From IMG/VR virus record IMGVR_UViG_3300038468_000223, positions 32,001 to 96,000 of that record: a stretch of DNA of 64,000 nt; one strand, written 5' to 3'. A model generated the notes under the pieces. It had not been told where the DNA came from. It saw only the letters and a program-made list of their open reading frames with translations, and made no database searches. Each line of letters begins with the position of its first letter. Position 1 is the first letter of the stretch. The stretch is from a virus. This document shows, in pieces, positions 6,519-62,669 of this stretch. A program made the translations under genes and the position numbers.

Positions 6519-6554
6519 GGCTGCGGGCAGGGTGCCCGCGGCCTTCGGTGTTTT
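6519..6554 (+). terminator. GC-rich hairpin with T-rich tail between convergent genes
   Basis: GGCTGCGGGCA-ggg-TGCCCGCGGCC then TTCGGTGTTTT. Confidence 0.6.
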
Positions 6555-7795
6555 CACAACCCCATGGCGCTGTGCCGGACGGCCGCCTCCACCTTGGCGG
6601 CGTCGACCCCGCGGGGGTCGATCCAGAGCGACCTCGCCATGCCGAGCGTGTGACTCAGCCCGCGCCCGTGGACGACGCTCAGGTAGAGCGCCTGCGGCTT
6701 GAACCAGACCCGGATGGCCCCGTCCGGCGACGTCGCGTGCGGGACCTTCAGGTCCCGCGCGACTCGCCAGCCCTGCGCTTCGAGGTGGTTCATGACCCGC
6801 GCCTTCGCCTGCGCGAAGGTCTCGACCGGGTTCGGGAGCCCCTCGCGCAGCCGGCGCCCCTTCGCCGCCTTGTCCATCGCCTTCAGGCCCCACCAGAAGA
6901 GACCGACGGTCGCAGCGAGCGCGGCGCCGCTCCAGAAGACCGCCCCCCAGTCCGTCTTCCTCTCGATCTGCGAGCTACTCGTAGGGATCGGGCCGGTATC
7001 CGAGTAGCTCGCCCGTCGAAAAGGGCTGGAGGCCTCCGGCGTCGCCGCGAAGAGCGGCGCCAGCTCGGGCACGCCCGGCTGACGGAGGACCGTCATCTTG
7101 CCCTGGTGGCTCGCGAGCGGCGCCAGCTCCGCACTCGAGAGGACCGCCTGCAGGTCCATCGGCTGCCCGTCGACGAGGCACTGCCTGGCGACGAGGAGGC
7201 ACGTCTGGCTGTAGTCGATGTGCTTGAAGTCGTGAAACCACCCGCGCCCCTGGATCACGCGCTGCTTCGCGTCCGTGACGGACGGCTCCCACGACTTGCC
7301 GCCGAGGGTCGGCCCCTCGAAGTGCCAGCCGTAGTTCTCGGCCTTGCCGGTGGCGTACCGGAGCAAGTCGTTGTCGATGCACCAGTTCTTGCCGACCGTC
7401 CTGATGATGCCCCCGGCCGGCGTGGGCGGGAGCTTCGCGAGCTGGGCGTCGATCGTCGTGCTGTGCCTGATCATCCCGGCGCTCGAGGACGTGATCGTCT
7501 GCGTGTCGGGCGGCAGCGTCGTGGCCCGCTGCTGCCAGCCGAGGTCGACGAGCTTGGGCGTGAGCAGCGAGCACCCGAGCAGGTCGGCGATCTGCTGCTC
7601 GAGGTACGCGCTGACGTCGATGCGCACGCCTTCGATCTTGAGGGCGTCAGCGAAGACCCTAAACTCGCCGTGGTGGCCGCCGGCGTCGCTGACGACCGTC
7701 CCCCACGAGACCTCAAAGTTGCCGCCCTTGATCTGGTCGAGGACGAGCGGGGCGTACGCGGCGCTCGCGGTGTCACCGGGCCATACGATGGGCAT
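6554..7795 (-). CDS. Single-TM protein: N-terminal H-x-DYSQ domain, TM, LPNP, small basic C-terminal module
   Basis: Good codon pattern; TM AVFWSGAALAATVGLFWW. Confidence 0.75.
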   Translation of the reverse strand: MPIVWPGDTASAAYAPLVLDQIKGGNFEVSWGTVVSDAGGHHGEFRVFADALKIEGVRIDVSAYLEQQIADLLGCSLLTPKLVDLGWQQRATTLPPDTQTITSSSAGMIRHSTTIDAQLAKLPPTPAGGIIRTVGKNWCIDNDLLRYATGKAENYGWHFEGPTLGGKSWEPSVTDAKQRVIQGRGWFHDFKHIDYSQTCLLVARQCLVDGQPMDLQAVLSSAELAPLASHQGKMTVLRQPGVPELAPLFAATPEASSPFRRASYSDTGPIPTSSSQIERKTDWGAVFWSGAALAATVGLFWWGLKAMDKAAKGRRLREGLPNPVETFAQAKARVMNHLEAQGWRVARDLKVPHATSPDGAIRVWFKPQALYLSVVHGRGLSHTLGMARSLWIDPRGVDAAKVEAAVRHSAMGL

Positions 7796-7798
7796 CGC

Positions 7799-8116
7799 TC
7801 ACCTCTTGAGCTGGTTGAAGATCCCGATCGCGAGCGGGATGCCGAGCCCGATGCCCGCCACCTTGATCGCGGTGTCGCGCTGCTTGGCCGAGACGACCGC
7901 CACGCCGAGCCCGATGATGCCGGCGAGCACCAGGCCGCTGTACGCGCCGAAGACGGCGCCCTTGCCGGCGCCGCAGAGGATCCCCGACCCCTCCTTGTCG
8001 CAGCTCGGGTTGGTCAGCGCACCGAAGACGGCGCCGATGCCGAGGCTGATGCCGGTGTAGACGAGCGCCGGCTTCCAGCCGGTGCTCGCGGGCTCCCGCA
8101 GGACGATGTCGGCCAT
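7799..8116 (-). CDS. Small multi-TM membrane protein
   Basis: Three Gly-rich hydrophobic segments. Confidence 0.75.
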   Translation of the reverse strand: MADIVLREPASTGWKPALVYTGISLGIGAVFGALTNPSCDKEGSGILCGAGKGAVFGAYSGLVLAGIIGLGVAVVSAKQRDTAIKVAGIGLGIPLAIGIFNQLKR

Positions 8117-8119
8117 GAC

Positions 8120-8569
8120 CTACTCCTCTTCCTCGTCGTGGGCCGCCGCCTTGTGCGGCGCGCGAGCCTTGAAGAACGCCGACGCCGCGGCGAGCGACGC
8201 GCTGAAGAGCGCCGTGCCGAGCAGCAGGAAGCTGATGATGCGCGTCGAGTTGTCGACCGCCGGCGCCGGCGTGTGCTGTACGACGGGCTGCGCGGGGACC
8301 GTCCCCGGCGGCGGGTGGTAGAGCGTCACGCCGTGACAGCCGTCGGCGGGGCACGGGACCTGCTCGCCCCTGCTGTTGTACGTGAACGCGTGGTGCTCCA
8401 CGCGCCCCGCGACCGGGACGCCCTCGATCACGGTGTGGAAGATCTCGCCGTAGTGCGACATCCCGGTCTGGTGGTTGATCTCCTGCGCCCACGCCACCAT
8501 GGCCGAGGACAGGTGCGACGACCCCCAGGGGGTGTAGCCGGGCGGCATGGGTCCGTCGTAGATCGCCAT
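8120..8569 (-). CDS. Single-TM protein with acidic C-terminus
   Basis: RBS AAGGAG; TM, basic patch, then DEEEE. Confidence 0.75.
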   Translation of the reverse strand: MAIYDGPMPPGYTPWGSSHLSSAMVAWAQEINHQTGMSHYGEIFHTVIEGVPVAGRVEHHAFTYNSRGEQVPCPADGCHGVTLYHPPPGTVPAQPVVQHTPAPAVDNSTRIISFLLLGTALFSASLAAASAFFKARAPHKAAAHDEEEE

Positions 8570-8581
8570 CAGGCGGCTCCT

Positions 8582-60869: not shown

Positions 60870-60987
60870 ACGAATCGGACGTCTACGACAAGCTCAAGAT
60901 GTGCGAGTCGGCGCGCGCCAGTGCGCTCTCGAAAGCGAACGCACTTCTCGACGTGACCATCACTGCGGCAGCAAAGGAGTGAGCGGC

Positions 60988-61386
60988 ATGGACGACATCA
61001 AGCAGTACCTCGTGGACGACAAGAAGCTCGCCATCTTCATCGGGGCGCTCGTCATCGGGATGGTCGTGCGCCTGCTCAAGAGCGACGTGAAGGGACCCTC
61101 GATCGACCCGCGCTGGCGCATGCTCGCGGTGTGGATCCTCGGCGTCGGGCAGATGGTCCTGAACTACGGCCTGCACATGTCGTGGAAGCAGGCCGCCGAG
61201 TACGCGGTGGTCTCCGCGCTGATGGCGGTGGCGGGACACGAGACCATCATCGAGTGGTGGCGCGACGGCAAGGAGCTGCCCCTACCGGGCCTGATGGTCG
61301 CGCCATCGAACGACAACGCGACGCCGACCAACAGCGTCGACGCGAAGAAGGATCCGCCCCCGCAAGACTCGAACAAGGCGGCATGA
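60988..61386 (+). CDS. Three-TM protein, holin-like
   Basis: AAGGAG RBS; three hydrophobic segments, hydrophilic tail. Confidence 0.55.
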   Translation: MDDIKQYLVDDKKLAIFIGALVIGMVVRLLKSDVKGPSIDPRWRMLAVWILGVGQMVLNYGLHMSWKQAAEYAVVSALMAVAGHETIIEWWRDGKELPLPGLMVAPSNDNATPTNSVDAKKDPPPQDSNKAA

Positions 61387-61411
61387 ACGACGAGGGGCAC
61401 AGGAGGTCGTG

Positions 61412-61645
61412 ATGAGCGAGAAGAAGGTGGGCGAGATGGTGGCGGGAGCCCTGGTGGGCGTGCTGCGCGACGTAGCGGTGAAGGCGGTGGGGGCGGCAGT
61501 CGAGAGCGTGCTCGAGGACGTGTCCAAGGGGCTGCAGTCGACCGACGAGAAGGTCGCGCGCACGCGCCGCAAGGTGGCGAAGACCACGCGCCGCCGCAAG
61601 GTCATCGACGTCGAGGTCGTCGACGCCGGCGAGAAGAGGCACTGA
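61412..61645 (+). CDS. Small hypothetical protein
   Basis: AGGAGG RBS. Confidence 0.6.
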   Translation: MSEKKVGEMVAGALVGVLRDVAVKAVGAAVESVLEDVSKGLQSTDEKVARTRRKVAKTTRRRKVIDVEVVDAGEKRH

Positions 61646-62019
61646 TGCGCCGGCGCCCCAAGGTCCGGCACATGTCGGAGCCCGCGGTCTTGCGGCGGGT
61701 GACCTACTTCTACCCGCGCGCCGACGCGGGCGGTGTCCTGCACGGCGAGGCGCTCGCGATGCCGCAGGGGACGCAGCTCGTGATCATCGAGCAGCGCGGT
61801 CACCGCTACCTCGCCATGACGGAGCGCGCGCACCAGAAGTGGTGGGCGTGGCTCGAGGTGGACGCGTTCAGGACCGAGTTCCCGAACCCCATCTCGCGCC
61901 CGCTCGGGGCGGCGCTCGTGTTCGGCGCCGGCGTCGGAGCCGGCGTCCTGCTCACGATGATCCTCAACAGCGCGACGAAGGCGCAGGCGCCTTCGACGGC
62001 CGTCACCGTTCGGAGCTGA
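61645..62019 (+). CDS. Basic module, FPNP, TM
   Basis: TGATG coupling; hydrophobic C-terminal segment. Confidence 0.65.
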   Translation: MRRRPKVRHMSEPAVLRRVTYFYPRADAGGVLHGEALAMPQGTQLVIIEQRGHRYLAMTERAHQKWWAWLEVDAFRTEFPNPISRPLGAALVFGAGVGAGVLLTMILNSATKAQAPSTAVTVRS

Positions 62020-62021
62020 CC

Positions 62022-62669
62022 ATGCCGCTCTCCATCGATCGTTCGTACCCACGCTGGCGCCGGATGGAGCGCGACCTGACGCGCTACTACGAGGAGTGCG
62101 CGTCGAGCGCGCCGGCGAGGTTCCGCGGCAAGCGGCGCAAGAGCTACTGCGCCGGCGTGGCGTGGAAGCGCCTCAAGATGGCGGGGCGCTACCGCGACTA
62201 CCCGGGCTTCGGGCGCGCGGCGGCCGAAGGCCGCGAGAACCCCCTCCCCTCCAAGACCAAGGACGCGCTCATCGCGACCGCGGTCATCGCCGGGGGCTTC
62301 GGCCTGATCCTCTACATGATCTCGAAGCTGCCGAAGAAGGCGCCGGCTCCGCCGCAGCCCTCTCCTCTTCCCGCGACGACGCCCACGGGCATCCCGGTCG
62401 TCCTCACCGAGCCGACCTACTACGTGCACCAGCGCCTCATCGACAGCCTCGACACGCAGGCGATGCGGTGCACCCTCCCCATGTTCGTATTCGCCGGGCC
62501 GAAGTCCGCGGCCGACGCCCTCGCGCGCCAGCTCACGACGCGCGCGCCGATCGGGGGGAGCGGCATGGTCGCCGTCTCGGTCGCCTCGCCGGCCGTCGAG
62601 CCGACGTGCAACTGGCGCCGGGTCTGCCTCGCCGACGGCTCGTGCGTCGGCGCGGTCGGTCTCGGCTGA
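62022..62669 (+). CDS. ChaB-like module, RENP, TM, C-terminal domain ending GAVGLG
   Basis: CAGVAWKR..GRYRDYP shared with 49480. Confidence 0.7.
   Translation: MPLSIDRSYPRWRRMERDLTRYYEECASSAPARFRGKRRKSYCAGVAWKRLKMAGRYRDYPGFGRAAAEGRENPLPSKTKDALIATAVIAGGFGLILYMISKLPKKAPAPPQPSPLPATTPTGIPVVLTEPTYYVHQRLIDSLDTQAMRCTLPMFVFAGPKSAADALARQLTTRAPIGGSGMVAVSVASPAVEPTCNWRRVCLADGSCVGAVGLG

Follow-up and report, generated by a model that had tools for sequence, protein, structure and literature searches.

An Asn-Pro box that resembles a new processing or recognition signal between membrane anchors and interchangeable basic modules in one clade of uncultured phages

In the virus IMGVR_UViG_3300038468_000223, a short box, [E/D/R/S]-N-P-[L/I/V/M], appears to be a selected, protein-level seam signal between the membrane anchor and interchangeable leaders, Arg-rich peptides and small basic domains. 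Judged from the sequence, the pair NP plus a hydrophobic residue has the look of a new signal for processing or recognition. We tentatively read the box as a processing site (probability about 0.4), at which a leader or module would be cut from its anchor at or beside Asn-Pro, and we prefer this reading to an uncut structural hinge or helix cap.

The analysed stretch of 64,000 nucleotides, called the window here, covers positions 32,001 to 96,000 of the 105.5-kb record. The source is an uncultured, probably tailless soil phage. Its genome is of prokaryote type: genes overlap at ATGA junctions, and a tRNA array and an integrase are present. About 36 of its proteins have predicted transmembrane (TM) helices. 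Using the candidate capsid protein 51590 as the marker, 36 related loci were found, seven NP-bearing and 29 more distant. The family comprises uncultured bacterial viruses of 55–130 kb with many small membrane proteins. As in PRD1-like internal-membrane viruses, small membrane proteins crowd the capsid gene block, and no terminase, portal or tail genes were detectable in the family; no large protein scanned gave a PHROG structural or terminase match. The model of 51590 (pLDDT 83) is best matched by P3 of PRD1 (Z 5.3, rmsd 8.0, 176 aligned), followed by the jelly-roll capsid proteins of SPV1 (Z 5.2) and HCIV-1 (Z 5.0), all only at Z of about 5, and a Foldseek search with this model gave no match at E < 0.001. 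Walker A motifs were found only in replication-type proteins and in 19041 (AAA_24), and the search for an FtsK/HerA-type packaging ATPase showed no Walker A near the capsid gene. The features of the window concerned here are as follows.

6554..7795, minus strand: 413-residue protein with an N-domain, TM helix, RRLREGLP-NP-VETF and a 90-residue basic C-module (NP codons 6827-6832, minus strand)
9235..10113, minus strand: 292-residue protein with a 13-residue acidic leader, NP and a TM helix 6 residues on (NP codons 10069-10074, minus strand); atypically, the residue after NP is Asn, not Leu, Ile, Val or Met
44065..45339, plus strand: 424-residue membrane protein with its last TM helix, GRFAKE-NP-IAVD and a basic 76-residue C-module (NP codons 45103-45108)
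45353..46093, plus strand: TM protein with the acidic linker VREEEEEE and a basic tail, the joint lacking NP
46104..46835, plus strand: 243-residue protein with a basic 77-residue N-module, FQK-NP-VSNTE, TM helix and a chagasin (I42)-like C-domain (NP codons 46335-46340)
46839..48977, plus strand: 712-residue transglutaminase-like cysteine peptidase with C-terminal TM helices
47190..47711, plus strand: 174-residue mini-intein inside 46839, immediately preceding the catalytic Cys of the CDD motif
49043..49483, plus strand: 146-residue beta-barrel protein, its stop overlapping the 49480 start by 4 bases
49480..51525, plus strand: 681-residue multi-module protein with a 36-residue leader, NP (codons 49588-49593), CAxVAWKR module, very basic Lys/Ala-rich region, tandem NP (50707-50712 and 50737-50742) and a TM domain
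51590..52924, plus strand: candidate major capsid protein, 444 residues, GC3 0.99
54456..55820, plus strand: 454-residue protein with a LysM-like N-end, duplicated domain, TM helix, acidic linker AESYE-NP-VLTLQW and a basic 93-residue C-module (NP codons 55533-55538)
55833..58495, plus strand: TM proteins 55833, 56250 and 57440, without NP joint; the C-end of 57440 is the RGW...HKI module
61645..62019, plus strand: 124-residue protein with a basic 80-residue N-module, TEFP-NP-ISRP and a TM helix (NP codons 61885-61890)
62022..62669, plus strand: 215-residue protein with the CAxVAWKR module, AAEGRE-NP-LPSKTKD, TM helix and a Cys-rich C-domain (NP codons 62238-62243)

The nine NP sites listed by the first-pass annotation are all present in the genes it named, as are the linkers of 45353, 56250 and 57440 that keep acidic residues only; a tenth NP lies at 49588-49593. 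Its description of the modules beside NP as basic holds for eight of nine cases (pI 9.6–11.3), the exception being the acidic leader of 9235.

TM helices were predicted by hydropathy only, and a site was counted as near a helix when it lay at most 20 residues before or 35 residues after it. In the whole genome, NP[LIVM] occurs 8 times per 1820 residues near TM helices and 16 times per 26824 residues elsewhere (odds ratio 7.4, p = 7.7e-5). In the seven whole related genomes pooled, the counts are 38 per 10915 and 66 per 148130 (odds ratio 7.8, p = 2.2e-18). Because many sites lie in paralogous or orthologous cassettes, these p-values overstate the independence of the sites. In an unbiased scan of the 15 residues upstream of TM helices in the seven relatives, NP ranks first among 400 dipeptides (57 observed, 9.2 expected, p = 2e-26). 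Enrichment near TM helices had been set beforehand as a check on the first-pass proposal; it was found in this genome and replicated in the seven relatives. The control dipeptides DP, GP, NG and PN show no enrichment near TM helices, DP being depleted, and SP is enriched only weakly. No such excess near TM helices is seen for NP in the 29 more distant loci (odds ratio 1.5, p = 0.17), and the box appears to be confined to one clade of the family.

The pattern might be ascribed to chance, to composition or to a DNA-level motif read as Asn-Pro, as the sites had been picked by eye and the excess upstream of TM helices is modest in the window alone (5 observed, 1.2 expected). The replication in seven other genomes and the first rank among 400 dipeptides speak against this, as does the invariance of Asn and Pro in a diverged family described below. 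The DNA flanks of the ten sites have nothing in common beyond the two codons; as the DNA is not conserved, the signal resides in the protein. This explanation is largely refuted, and what is left of it is very improbable.

The preferences around NP span about eight residues: Tyr at -4, Arg or Lys at -2 and E/R/S/P at -1. After the Pro, position +1 is Leu or Ile in 55% of sites (8 of the 10 window sites have L/I/V/M there), +2 is Ser or Thr in 56%, and +5 is Glu in 25% and Asp in some others. According to the logo of the cassette (52 sites), positions -8 to -1 are Arg-rich and the TM helix lies 5–8 residues past NP, a spacing that is fixed at most N-terminal sites. The cassette is N-terminal in most cases, with domains of 30–200 residues behind it; the C-terminal forms run TM helix, motif, basic tail. 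The arrangements thus include leader-NP-TM and TM-linker-NP-Arg-rich tail; some boxes lie 14–30 residues past TM helices, and the one at residue 37 of 49480 is about 390 residues from a TM helix. Tandem boxes enclose short spacers or Arg-rich peptides, such as MI-NP-RRRRSRR-NP. Many family members have just 2–15 residues ahead of NP (MVENP, MRCPCENP, MRRNP); the tag thus persists where there is no cargo. In all the proteins the box is on the basic side of the single-pass anchors, which by the positive-inside rule would be the cytoplasmic side.

The residue after the Pro decides on 2A-like ribosomal skipping, in which the chain would be released during translation at D-V/I-E-x-N-P-G-P. YALENP, AESYENP and GRENP are superficially like this motif. 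The obligatory G-P after N-P, however, is absent at every window junction site and in the cassette consensus of the relatives, L/I/V/M being present instead, and to our knowledge 2A functions only on eukaryotic ribosomes, whereas this genome is of prokaryote type. With N-P-G-P absent, 2A-like skipping is ruled out by the sequence.

The same preferences could, quite conceivably, describe an uncut structural joint, in which Asn caps and Pro opens the next helix; such a joint would set where the anchor or module begins at the membrane interface, and the box would have spread with a duplicated signal-anchor cassette. The fixed spacing agrees with this, and the Ser/Thr at +2 and the acidic residue at +5 suit a capping box. 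Moreover, similarity within the cassette itself connects 45 of the 62 NP-TM proteins, an indication of common descent. The box is kept with as few as 2–5 residues before NP, and in non-membrane proteins NP[LIVM] shows no avoidance (63 observed, 54 expected). Other good N-cap pairs, however, are not enriched, as seen for DP and SP, and a helix cap includes neither a hydrophobic residue after Pro nor preferences at -4 and -2. Boxes far downstream of TM helices or 390 residues from one do not fit, and two tandem boxes are unable to cap one helix.

Sequence comparisons show that homology breaks at NP. In the 62022 family, all 7 members share an invariant N73 and P74, and the homology starts exactly at [E/D]NP, the N-terminal parts being unrelated or absent. 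The 7 nearest orthologues of 49480 retain its NP; distant ones have RGG-GMG in its place. The G007 orthologue of 6554 stops just past the TM helix without NP or module; similarly, orthologues of the gene at 71156 (window coordinates, outside the window) stop right past the TM helix, without the NP-plus-module add-on. Among the 44065 orthologues, FA[KR]ENP is kept in L003 and is replaced by HP in L002. The earlier view of NP as the point where membrane anchors join exchangeable, mostly basic parts is borne out by the invariance in the 62022 family and by these breaks, and conservation in homologues, also set as a check beforehand, was observed for 62022 and the nearest 49480 orthologues.

The proposed shuffling of modules is well supported for the CAxVAWKR modules of 49480 and 62022, which are homologous (E = 2e-15). 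The free-standing module of 62022 begins M-P-L, aligned to N-P-L of 49480, so that its Pro corresponds to the Pro after the Asn. The N-module of 46104 and the C-module of 57440 match marginally (E = 9e-4), with a third copy in a gene beyond the window, and the pair 54456/56250 lacks support (E = 1.3). The label 'ChaB-like' (PF06150) for the CAxVAWKR module lacks support as well: none of four copies matched a Pfam model even at E of 10, and the PDB sequence matches included no ChaB. The same goes for 'DUF6582-like', which reaches only E = 0.08.

The beta-barrel gene 49043 bears on a further possibility, that the box is an uncut recognition or sorting tag. In that case an assembly factor or the capsid would bind the motif on the cytoplasmic face and gather the tagged proteins into the virus membrane. 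The clade to which the motif is specific also carries the 49043 family, beside the capsid gene: each of the 7 NP-bearing relatives has it, and the 29 other loci all lack it. The constant basic side of the box also agrees with a tag. According to the capsid tree, however, at most two evolutionary events would account for the co-occurrence, and fold comparison of the 49043 model gave no match pointing to binding. A tag fits poorly with the variable distance to the membrane and with boxes far from any TM helix, and we regard it as unlikely.

Cleavage, the reading we prefer, gains support from several of these results. The enrichment is independently replicated, and it is specific to Asn, which a generic helix cap does not predict. 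The preferences over about eight residues resemble the subsite specificity of a protease. The box occurs in both orientations, at variable distance from the membrane. In the 62022 family Asn and Pro are retained while the upstream parts vary, the free-standing 62022 module starts at the very Pro of the 49480 site, and tandem boxes flank spacers or Arg-rich peptides. In addition, two of the virus's proteins are cysteine-peptidase-like, and the C-domain of 46104 resembles a chagasin-type inhibitor (26.2 bits to PF09394, gathering cut-off 27.2; a precomputed table also lists PF09394). Other results weigh against cleavage, namely the lack of avoidance in non-membrane proteins, the HP or AP-P of L002 at two sites that are NP in the window, and the distribution of the enzymes, none of which tracks the motif. 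As many members have almost nothing before NP, release of cargo cannot be its sole role.

The proposed cut would separate the leader or module from its anchor while the particle matures or upon entry, and would be made either by a virus cysteine peptidase, with 46839 as the conserved candidate, or by self-cleavage of the Asn-Pro lyase type; short leaders, which would hardly supply a folded domain around Asn-Pro, weigh against the latter. The 46839 gene is conserved as a neighbour of the capsid gene (31 of the 36 related loci), and its intein-free orthologues in L017 and L022 match PF01841 with 29.4 and 24.9 bits (cut-off 23). Removal of the intein restores the CDD motif; the insert is lacking in orthologues, and in L016 the corresponding position is occupied by a LAGLIDADG intein. 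Only 3 of 8 genomes encode the papain-like peptidase. Of the two enzymes first named for the cleavage, 46839 remains as a cysteine-peptidase-like candidate, with the reservation that its type is also found in relatives without the NP box, and 40356 is a RadC-type JAB domain. Such domains are predicted to act on nucleic acids and not as peptidases (PMC5512222).

The statement that no described system is like this was too strong, as partial analogues exist in asparagine peptide lyases, prepilin leaders, phage T4 capsid-targeting leaders and adenovirus core-protein precursors. In the case of the lyases, FlhB/YscU self-cleave at the Asn-Pro of NPTH, and known Asn-Pro self-cleavage requires a folded domain around the site. 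Virion proteins of this kind are reovirus mu1 and aquareovirus VP5 (Asn42-Pro43), and the anti-sigma factor RsgI is a further example (PMC10328401). The likeness lies in the Asn-Pro pair, in virion or single-pass membrane proteins, at a membrane or module border. Their pair, however, is within a folded domain that activates the Asn, whereas here it often follows a leader of 2–15 residues, and no match by fold or homology was found.

Class III (type IV prepilin) signal peptides share a short, basic leader of variable length directly before a hydrophobic helix, as seen in the cassette logo, a conserved block from the site on (hydrophobic +1, Ser/Thr +2) and arrays of paralogues with variable C-terminal parts. 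The Glu that they carry at +5 has a counterpart in 25% of the sites here, with Asp in some others. They differ in the obligatory Gly (rarely Ala) at -1, where every site here has Pro or Asn; furthermore, entire domains stand in for some leaders here, and boxes are also found C-terminally to TM helices. No conserved prepilin-peptidase-like polytopic protein is encoded across the 8 virus genomes, though such an enzyme might come from the host. In the tripartite sortase/exosortase signal, the extreme C-terminus carries a motif, a TM helix and a basic tail. This reading was rejected, since most cassettes are N-terminal and the C-terminal forms have the TM helix before the motif. The helix N-cap or Asx-Pro turn is a general structural device, as in the NPA half-helices of aquaporin, where Asn-Pro likewise starts a membrane helix and is followed by small polar and acidic residues; it leaves the Asn specificity, the flank preferences and the helix-distant sites unexplained.

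Polyvalent proteins of phages and conjugative elements also join swappable modules of a mobile element in one polypeptide, although most proteins here are small and anchored by a single TM helix. Their typical zincin-like metallopeptidase domain is absent among the proteins scanned. Proteolytic release has been proposed for their modules (Iyer et al., 2017; PMC5512222), in a paper that is not known to describe an NP seam, and DdrB of phage P1 is processed before packaging (PMC5512222).

Other partly similar systems combine a short consensus with the seams of virion-internal, often very basic proteins. Capsid-targeting leaders of phage T4 are removed by the prohead protease, and core-protein precursors of adenovirus and ASFV are cut at GG-type sites. 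Neither a prohead (S78/U9-type) nor an adenain-type protease was present among the proteins scanned. In those systems leaders or modules are freed after assembly, whereas the cut at NP is only proposed; the consensus here is NP plus a hydrophobic residue, and the precursors are membrane-anchored. More speculatively, a virus-specific seam code [basic]-x-N-P-[hydrophobic] may direct Asn-Pro cleavage at the inner face of the viral membrane, freeing protamine-like Arg-rich peptides and small basic domains. If true, this would be an adenovirus-like core maturation in a bacterial membrane-containing virus.

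The Asn-Pro (NP) box is placed exactly at the junction between membrane anchor and swappable leader or module, according to four lines of evidence. By exhaustive profile search, the family of gene 62022 (genes are named by their window start) has seven members. Asn73 and Pro74 are invariant in the family, and the preceding residue is Glu or Asp in 7/7. The members are alignable from NP through the C-terminus, and the parts before NP are mutually unrelated, or merely MV or MRCPC. The N-terminal CAxVAWKR module of 62022 has a homologous counterpart close to the N-terminus of 49480 (E 2e-15), and the alignment starts where Pro38 of 49480, right after Asn37, meets Pro2 of 62022, right after Met1. 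The 6554 orthologue in the related genome G007 has its C-terminal end a few residues past the transmembrane (TM) helix, and 6554 here has a linker, NP and a basic module added. The same addition is found in the gene at 71156-71884 (window coordinates, outside the window), whose G001 orthologue ends a few residues past the TM helix. The orthologues of 49480 are always located just upstream of the gene of the candidate major capsid protein, 51590 (capsid gene). Their box preceding the TM domain is (Y)AL(E/S)NP(L/M)(S/T)GGE in the seven nearest relatives and R-G-G-G-M-G in distant ones. In 44065, FA[KR]ENP is conserved in the related locus L003, and L002 has HP.

Among L007-L037, the distant relatives have a junction in the 49480 orthologue, the next gene upstream of the capsid gene, that reads R-(G/S)-G-G-M-G-x-A-E as against NP-L-S-G-G-E. 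According to this comparison, the distant relatives may have a different seam motif, of the Gly-hydrophobic-Gly type.

All the NP sites quoted in the first-pass annotation were found in the sequence. In the whole genome, 63 NP pairs were seen against 47 expected by composition, and 25 are followed by Leu, Ile, Val or Met. TM helices were predicted by hydropathy, and "near TM" was defined as ≤20 aa before or ≤35 aa after a helix. Genome-wide, NP[LIVM] occurs 8 times in 1820 aa near TM helices and 16 times in 26824 aa elsewhere, which is 7.4 times denser (p 7.7e-5). Of the control dipeptides, DP, GP, NG and PN show no enrichment near TM helices, and SP is weakly enriched. A chance origin of the box was rejected. 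The part beyond NP as seen from the membrane is basic (pI 9.6-11.3) in 8/9 cases, and the ninth is the acidic 13-residue leader of 9235. The DNA flanks of ten NP sites have nothing in common except the two codons. Therefore, the signal resides in the protein, and a DNA-level motif is ruled out by the unconserved flanks.

Using the alignment A1 of capsid homologues, 36 related IMG/VR loci were obtained, and seven genomes (G001-G007) were then taken whole. The NP pattern is stronger in these relatives than in the window. In the pooled genomes, NP[LIVM] occurs 38 times in 10915 aa near TM helices and 66 times in 148130 aa elsewhere (odds ratio 7.8, p 2.2e-18), and the odds ratio of G006 by itself is 27.6. 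When all 400 dipeptides were scanned in the 15 residues preceding TM helices of the seven genomes, NP ranked first, with 57 seen and 9.2 expected (p 2e-26). The sites are less independent than these p-values suggest: many are orthologous or paralogous, and 45/62 NP-TM proteins are linked by similarity via the cassette itself. The enrichment is absent from 29 more distant loci (odds ratio 1.5, p 0.17). In the capsid tree, the window groups with L002-L006 and L011 in a fully supported clade, and the remaining NP-bearing genome, L017, is located at the base of the other group.

The commonest form of the box in the relatives opens with an Arg-rich N-terminus, short and variable in length, which is followed by N-P-[L/I]-[S/T]-x-x-[E/D] and a Gly-rich TM helix 5-8 residues on, as in ...YYRS-NP-LSDTELIVGG.... 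In the second form, a TM helix is followed by a linker, NP-[L/M/V] and an Arg-rich C-terminal tail, as in ...EPQE-NP-LRHRRRPGRGRRRARR. The logo of 52 sites shows Tyr at -4, Arg or Lys at -2 and Arg, Glu, Ser or Pro at -1; after the Pro, Leu or Ile is at +1 (55%) and Ser or Thr at +2 (56%). Cassette-bearing genes are arranged in tandem arrays in G003 and G006. Several proteins have double boxes 4-14 residues apart, and one has an Arg-rich peptide between two boxes (MI-NP-RRRRSRR-NP-V...).

The box could be an uncut structural joint, that is, a cap or hinge. The fixed spacing of 5-8 residues in the commonest form and the persistence of the box where there is hardly any leader fit such a joint. 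The motif is also not avoided elsewhere in the proteome overall (63 seen versus 54 expected; a post-hoc dip is confined to G003, G004 and G006), and no enzyme tracks it. We regard a joint as possible, on the doubtful side. The occurrence of the box in both orientations, its variable distance from the membrane and the tandem boxes point instead to processing, as does the break of homology at NP. Skipping of the 2A type was rejected, as G-P is absent after NP and the genome is of prokaryotic type.

The RGW...HKI module proposed for the N-terminus of 46104 and the C-terminus of 57440 does match, at a marginal level (E 9e-4), and the 46104 module has the same terminal IDKILARA as the C-terminal module of the 71156 gene. 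No homologues of 46104 were found among 5.8 billion proteins. The proposed pairing of 54456 with 56250 is unsupported (E 1.3). As for the labels of the first-pass annotation, "ChaB-like" found no support from Pfam or PDB sequence search, "DUF6582-like" goes back to a match of E 0.08, and "H1-like" describes the composition of the Lys/Ala-rich region in 49480. That annotation took NP for a cleavage or sorting tag by which membrane-anchored precursors package nucleic-acid-binding effectors. This interpretation is supported in part: NP is kept here as a functional tag at the seam, next to basic parts that can be exchanged, and cleavage, packaging and nucleic-acid binding are treated as hypotheses.

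The virus record is 105,511 bp long with direct terminal repeats of 127 bp and a G+C content of 67%; the window spans its bases 32001-96000. Gene calling with a codon-usage model gave a coding fraction of about 83%. The genes for replication are of ordinary phage type (family A DNA polymerase, UvrD helicase, SNF2 helicase, ThyX, primase-polymerase and RadC). Outside the window are an integrase, a transposase, a methyltransferase and a 21-gene tRNA array, the last in L070, the sequence directly beyond the window end.

37010-40240, + strand: family A DNA polymerase with N-terminal fusion of DUF4326, YspA-type SLOG and uracil-DNA glycosylase (UDG) domains, a single 1076-aa protein
L070:2133-6514 (2.1-6.5 kb past the window end), + strand: 21-gene tRNA array; one of the genes is called as tRNA-SeC (anticodon TCA)

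The ThyX-like protein (25108-26625, + strand) is roughly double its usual length at 505 aa, and its Pfam match is restricted to residues 88-285. Two tRNA-like genes lie side by side at 10461-10614 (- strand), and ARAGORN labels one of them "tRNA-Stop" with anticodon TTA. TAA is the least used stop in the gene calls (9/163).

The block 41081-63058 is nearly devoid of Pfam and PHROG matches and is packed with single-pass membrane proteins. Its capsid gene (51590-52924) has the strongest codon bias, and 0/97 of its metagenomic homologues are annotated. A scan of viral contigs with this gene as the single query gave no match; the closest relatives, P0002 and P0003, have 72% identical capsid proteins, and the relatives compared came from IMG/VR. 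The capsid model (pLDDT 83), which has two beta-sandwich halves, is weakly matched to jelly-roll capsids of membrane-containing viruses (PRD1 P3, Z 5.3; SPV1, 5.2; HCIV-1, 5.0). No large protein scanned matched terminase, portal or tail families. A tailless, membrane-containing virus is only plausible and not proven, because the jelly-roll matches are weak. The MAG bins with capsid homologues give conflicting hosts (Acidimicrobiales, Binatia, Polyangiaceae and Chloroflexota). In the literature, neither this virus group nor an NP seam was found described.

Other proteins of the block are as follows. A 623-aa protein (42151-44022, + strand) is composed mostly of Pro runs, up to about 20 in a row, and PPGYG repeats, with weak homologues in 8 related loci. 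Three beta-rich paralogues of about 155 aa (56954-57424, 58698-59156 and 59170-59634, + strand) each have a C-terminal AEELP(A/G) and match no family. A small protein (59897-60370, + strand), in what looks like a virion block, weakly matches dual-specificity phosphatases (PF00782, E 9e-5) and has a C-x5-R motif.

The following features are connected with candidate readers of the box.

47190-47711, + strand: 174-aa mini-intein (CFPKG...TVSN, then C) in 46839-48977, immediately N-terminal to the catalytic Cys in the transglutaminase-like core
L070:234-959 (window coordinates 64234-64959, 234 bases past the window), + strand: papain-family C1 cysteine peptidase (PF00112, 31.6 bits)
46104-46835, + strand: gene 46104, with a chagasin (I42)-like C-terminal domain

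Gene 46839 encodes a transglutaminase-like cysteine peptidase, and its intein-free orthologues exceed the Pfam cut-off. The L016 orthologue has a larger, LAGLIDADG-type intein at the same site, and most orthologues are intein-free. The gene is beside the capsid gene in 31/36 loci, NP-less loci included. Chagasin (I42) is an inhibitor class of C1 peptidases. The C1 peptidase and the 46104 domain are a possible virus-encoded protease/inhibitor pair. As the box reader, the C1 peptidase was rejected; homologues are present in only 2/7 relatives (G002 and G004), and the likely inhibitor domain of 46104 is across the membrane from NP. The RadC/JAB protein 40356, named earlier with 46839 as a possible cutter, was rejected, since nucleic acids are the predicted targets of its RadC-type JAB clade (PMC5512222). 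The eight genomes share no conserved polytopic protein that resembles a protease.

The relatives that encode a member of the 49043 family (146 aa) are precisely the seven with NP, and the 49043 gene overlaps the 49480 start. It is modeled as a confident beta-barrel (pLDDT 85). Foldseek (E >0.1) and VIA (best Z 3.9, to PilZ-like barrels) gave no informative fold match, a protein atlas gave no usable hit, and 49043 was rejected as a peptidase, its model being good yet without a fold match. The box might instead be a recognition or binding tag read by 49043 or the capsid. This seems unlikely to us. The predicted complex of 49043 and the 49480 junction gave no support for binding, which counts neither for nor against.

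Should the box serve as a signal for cutting or recognition, a simple sequence rule would lead to virion membrane proteins with detachable parts in a large uncharacterised soil-virus group. It would imply an unknown enzyme or a self-cleavage chemistry, and the seam could predict mature protein ends in metagenomic viruses. We tentatively favor the box as a processing site, with a probability of about 0.40. The Asn specificity, the eight-residue preference pattern, the free-standing module beginning at Pro, and the presence of peptidase and inhibitor genes would all suit processing. Known systems also favor processing by analogy: Asn-Pro cleavage is documented for capsid proteins of the reovirus type and for RsgI, in its juxtamembrane domain (PMC10328401).
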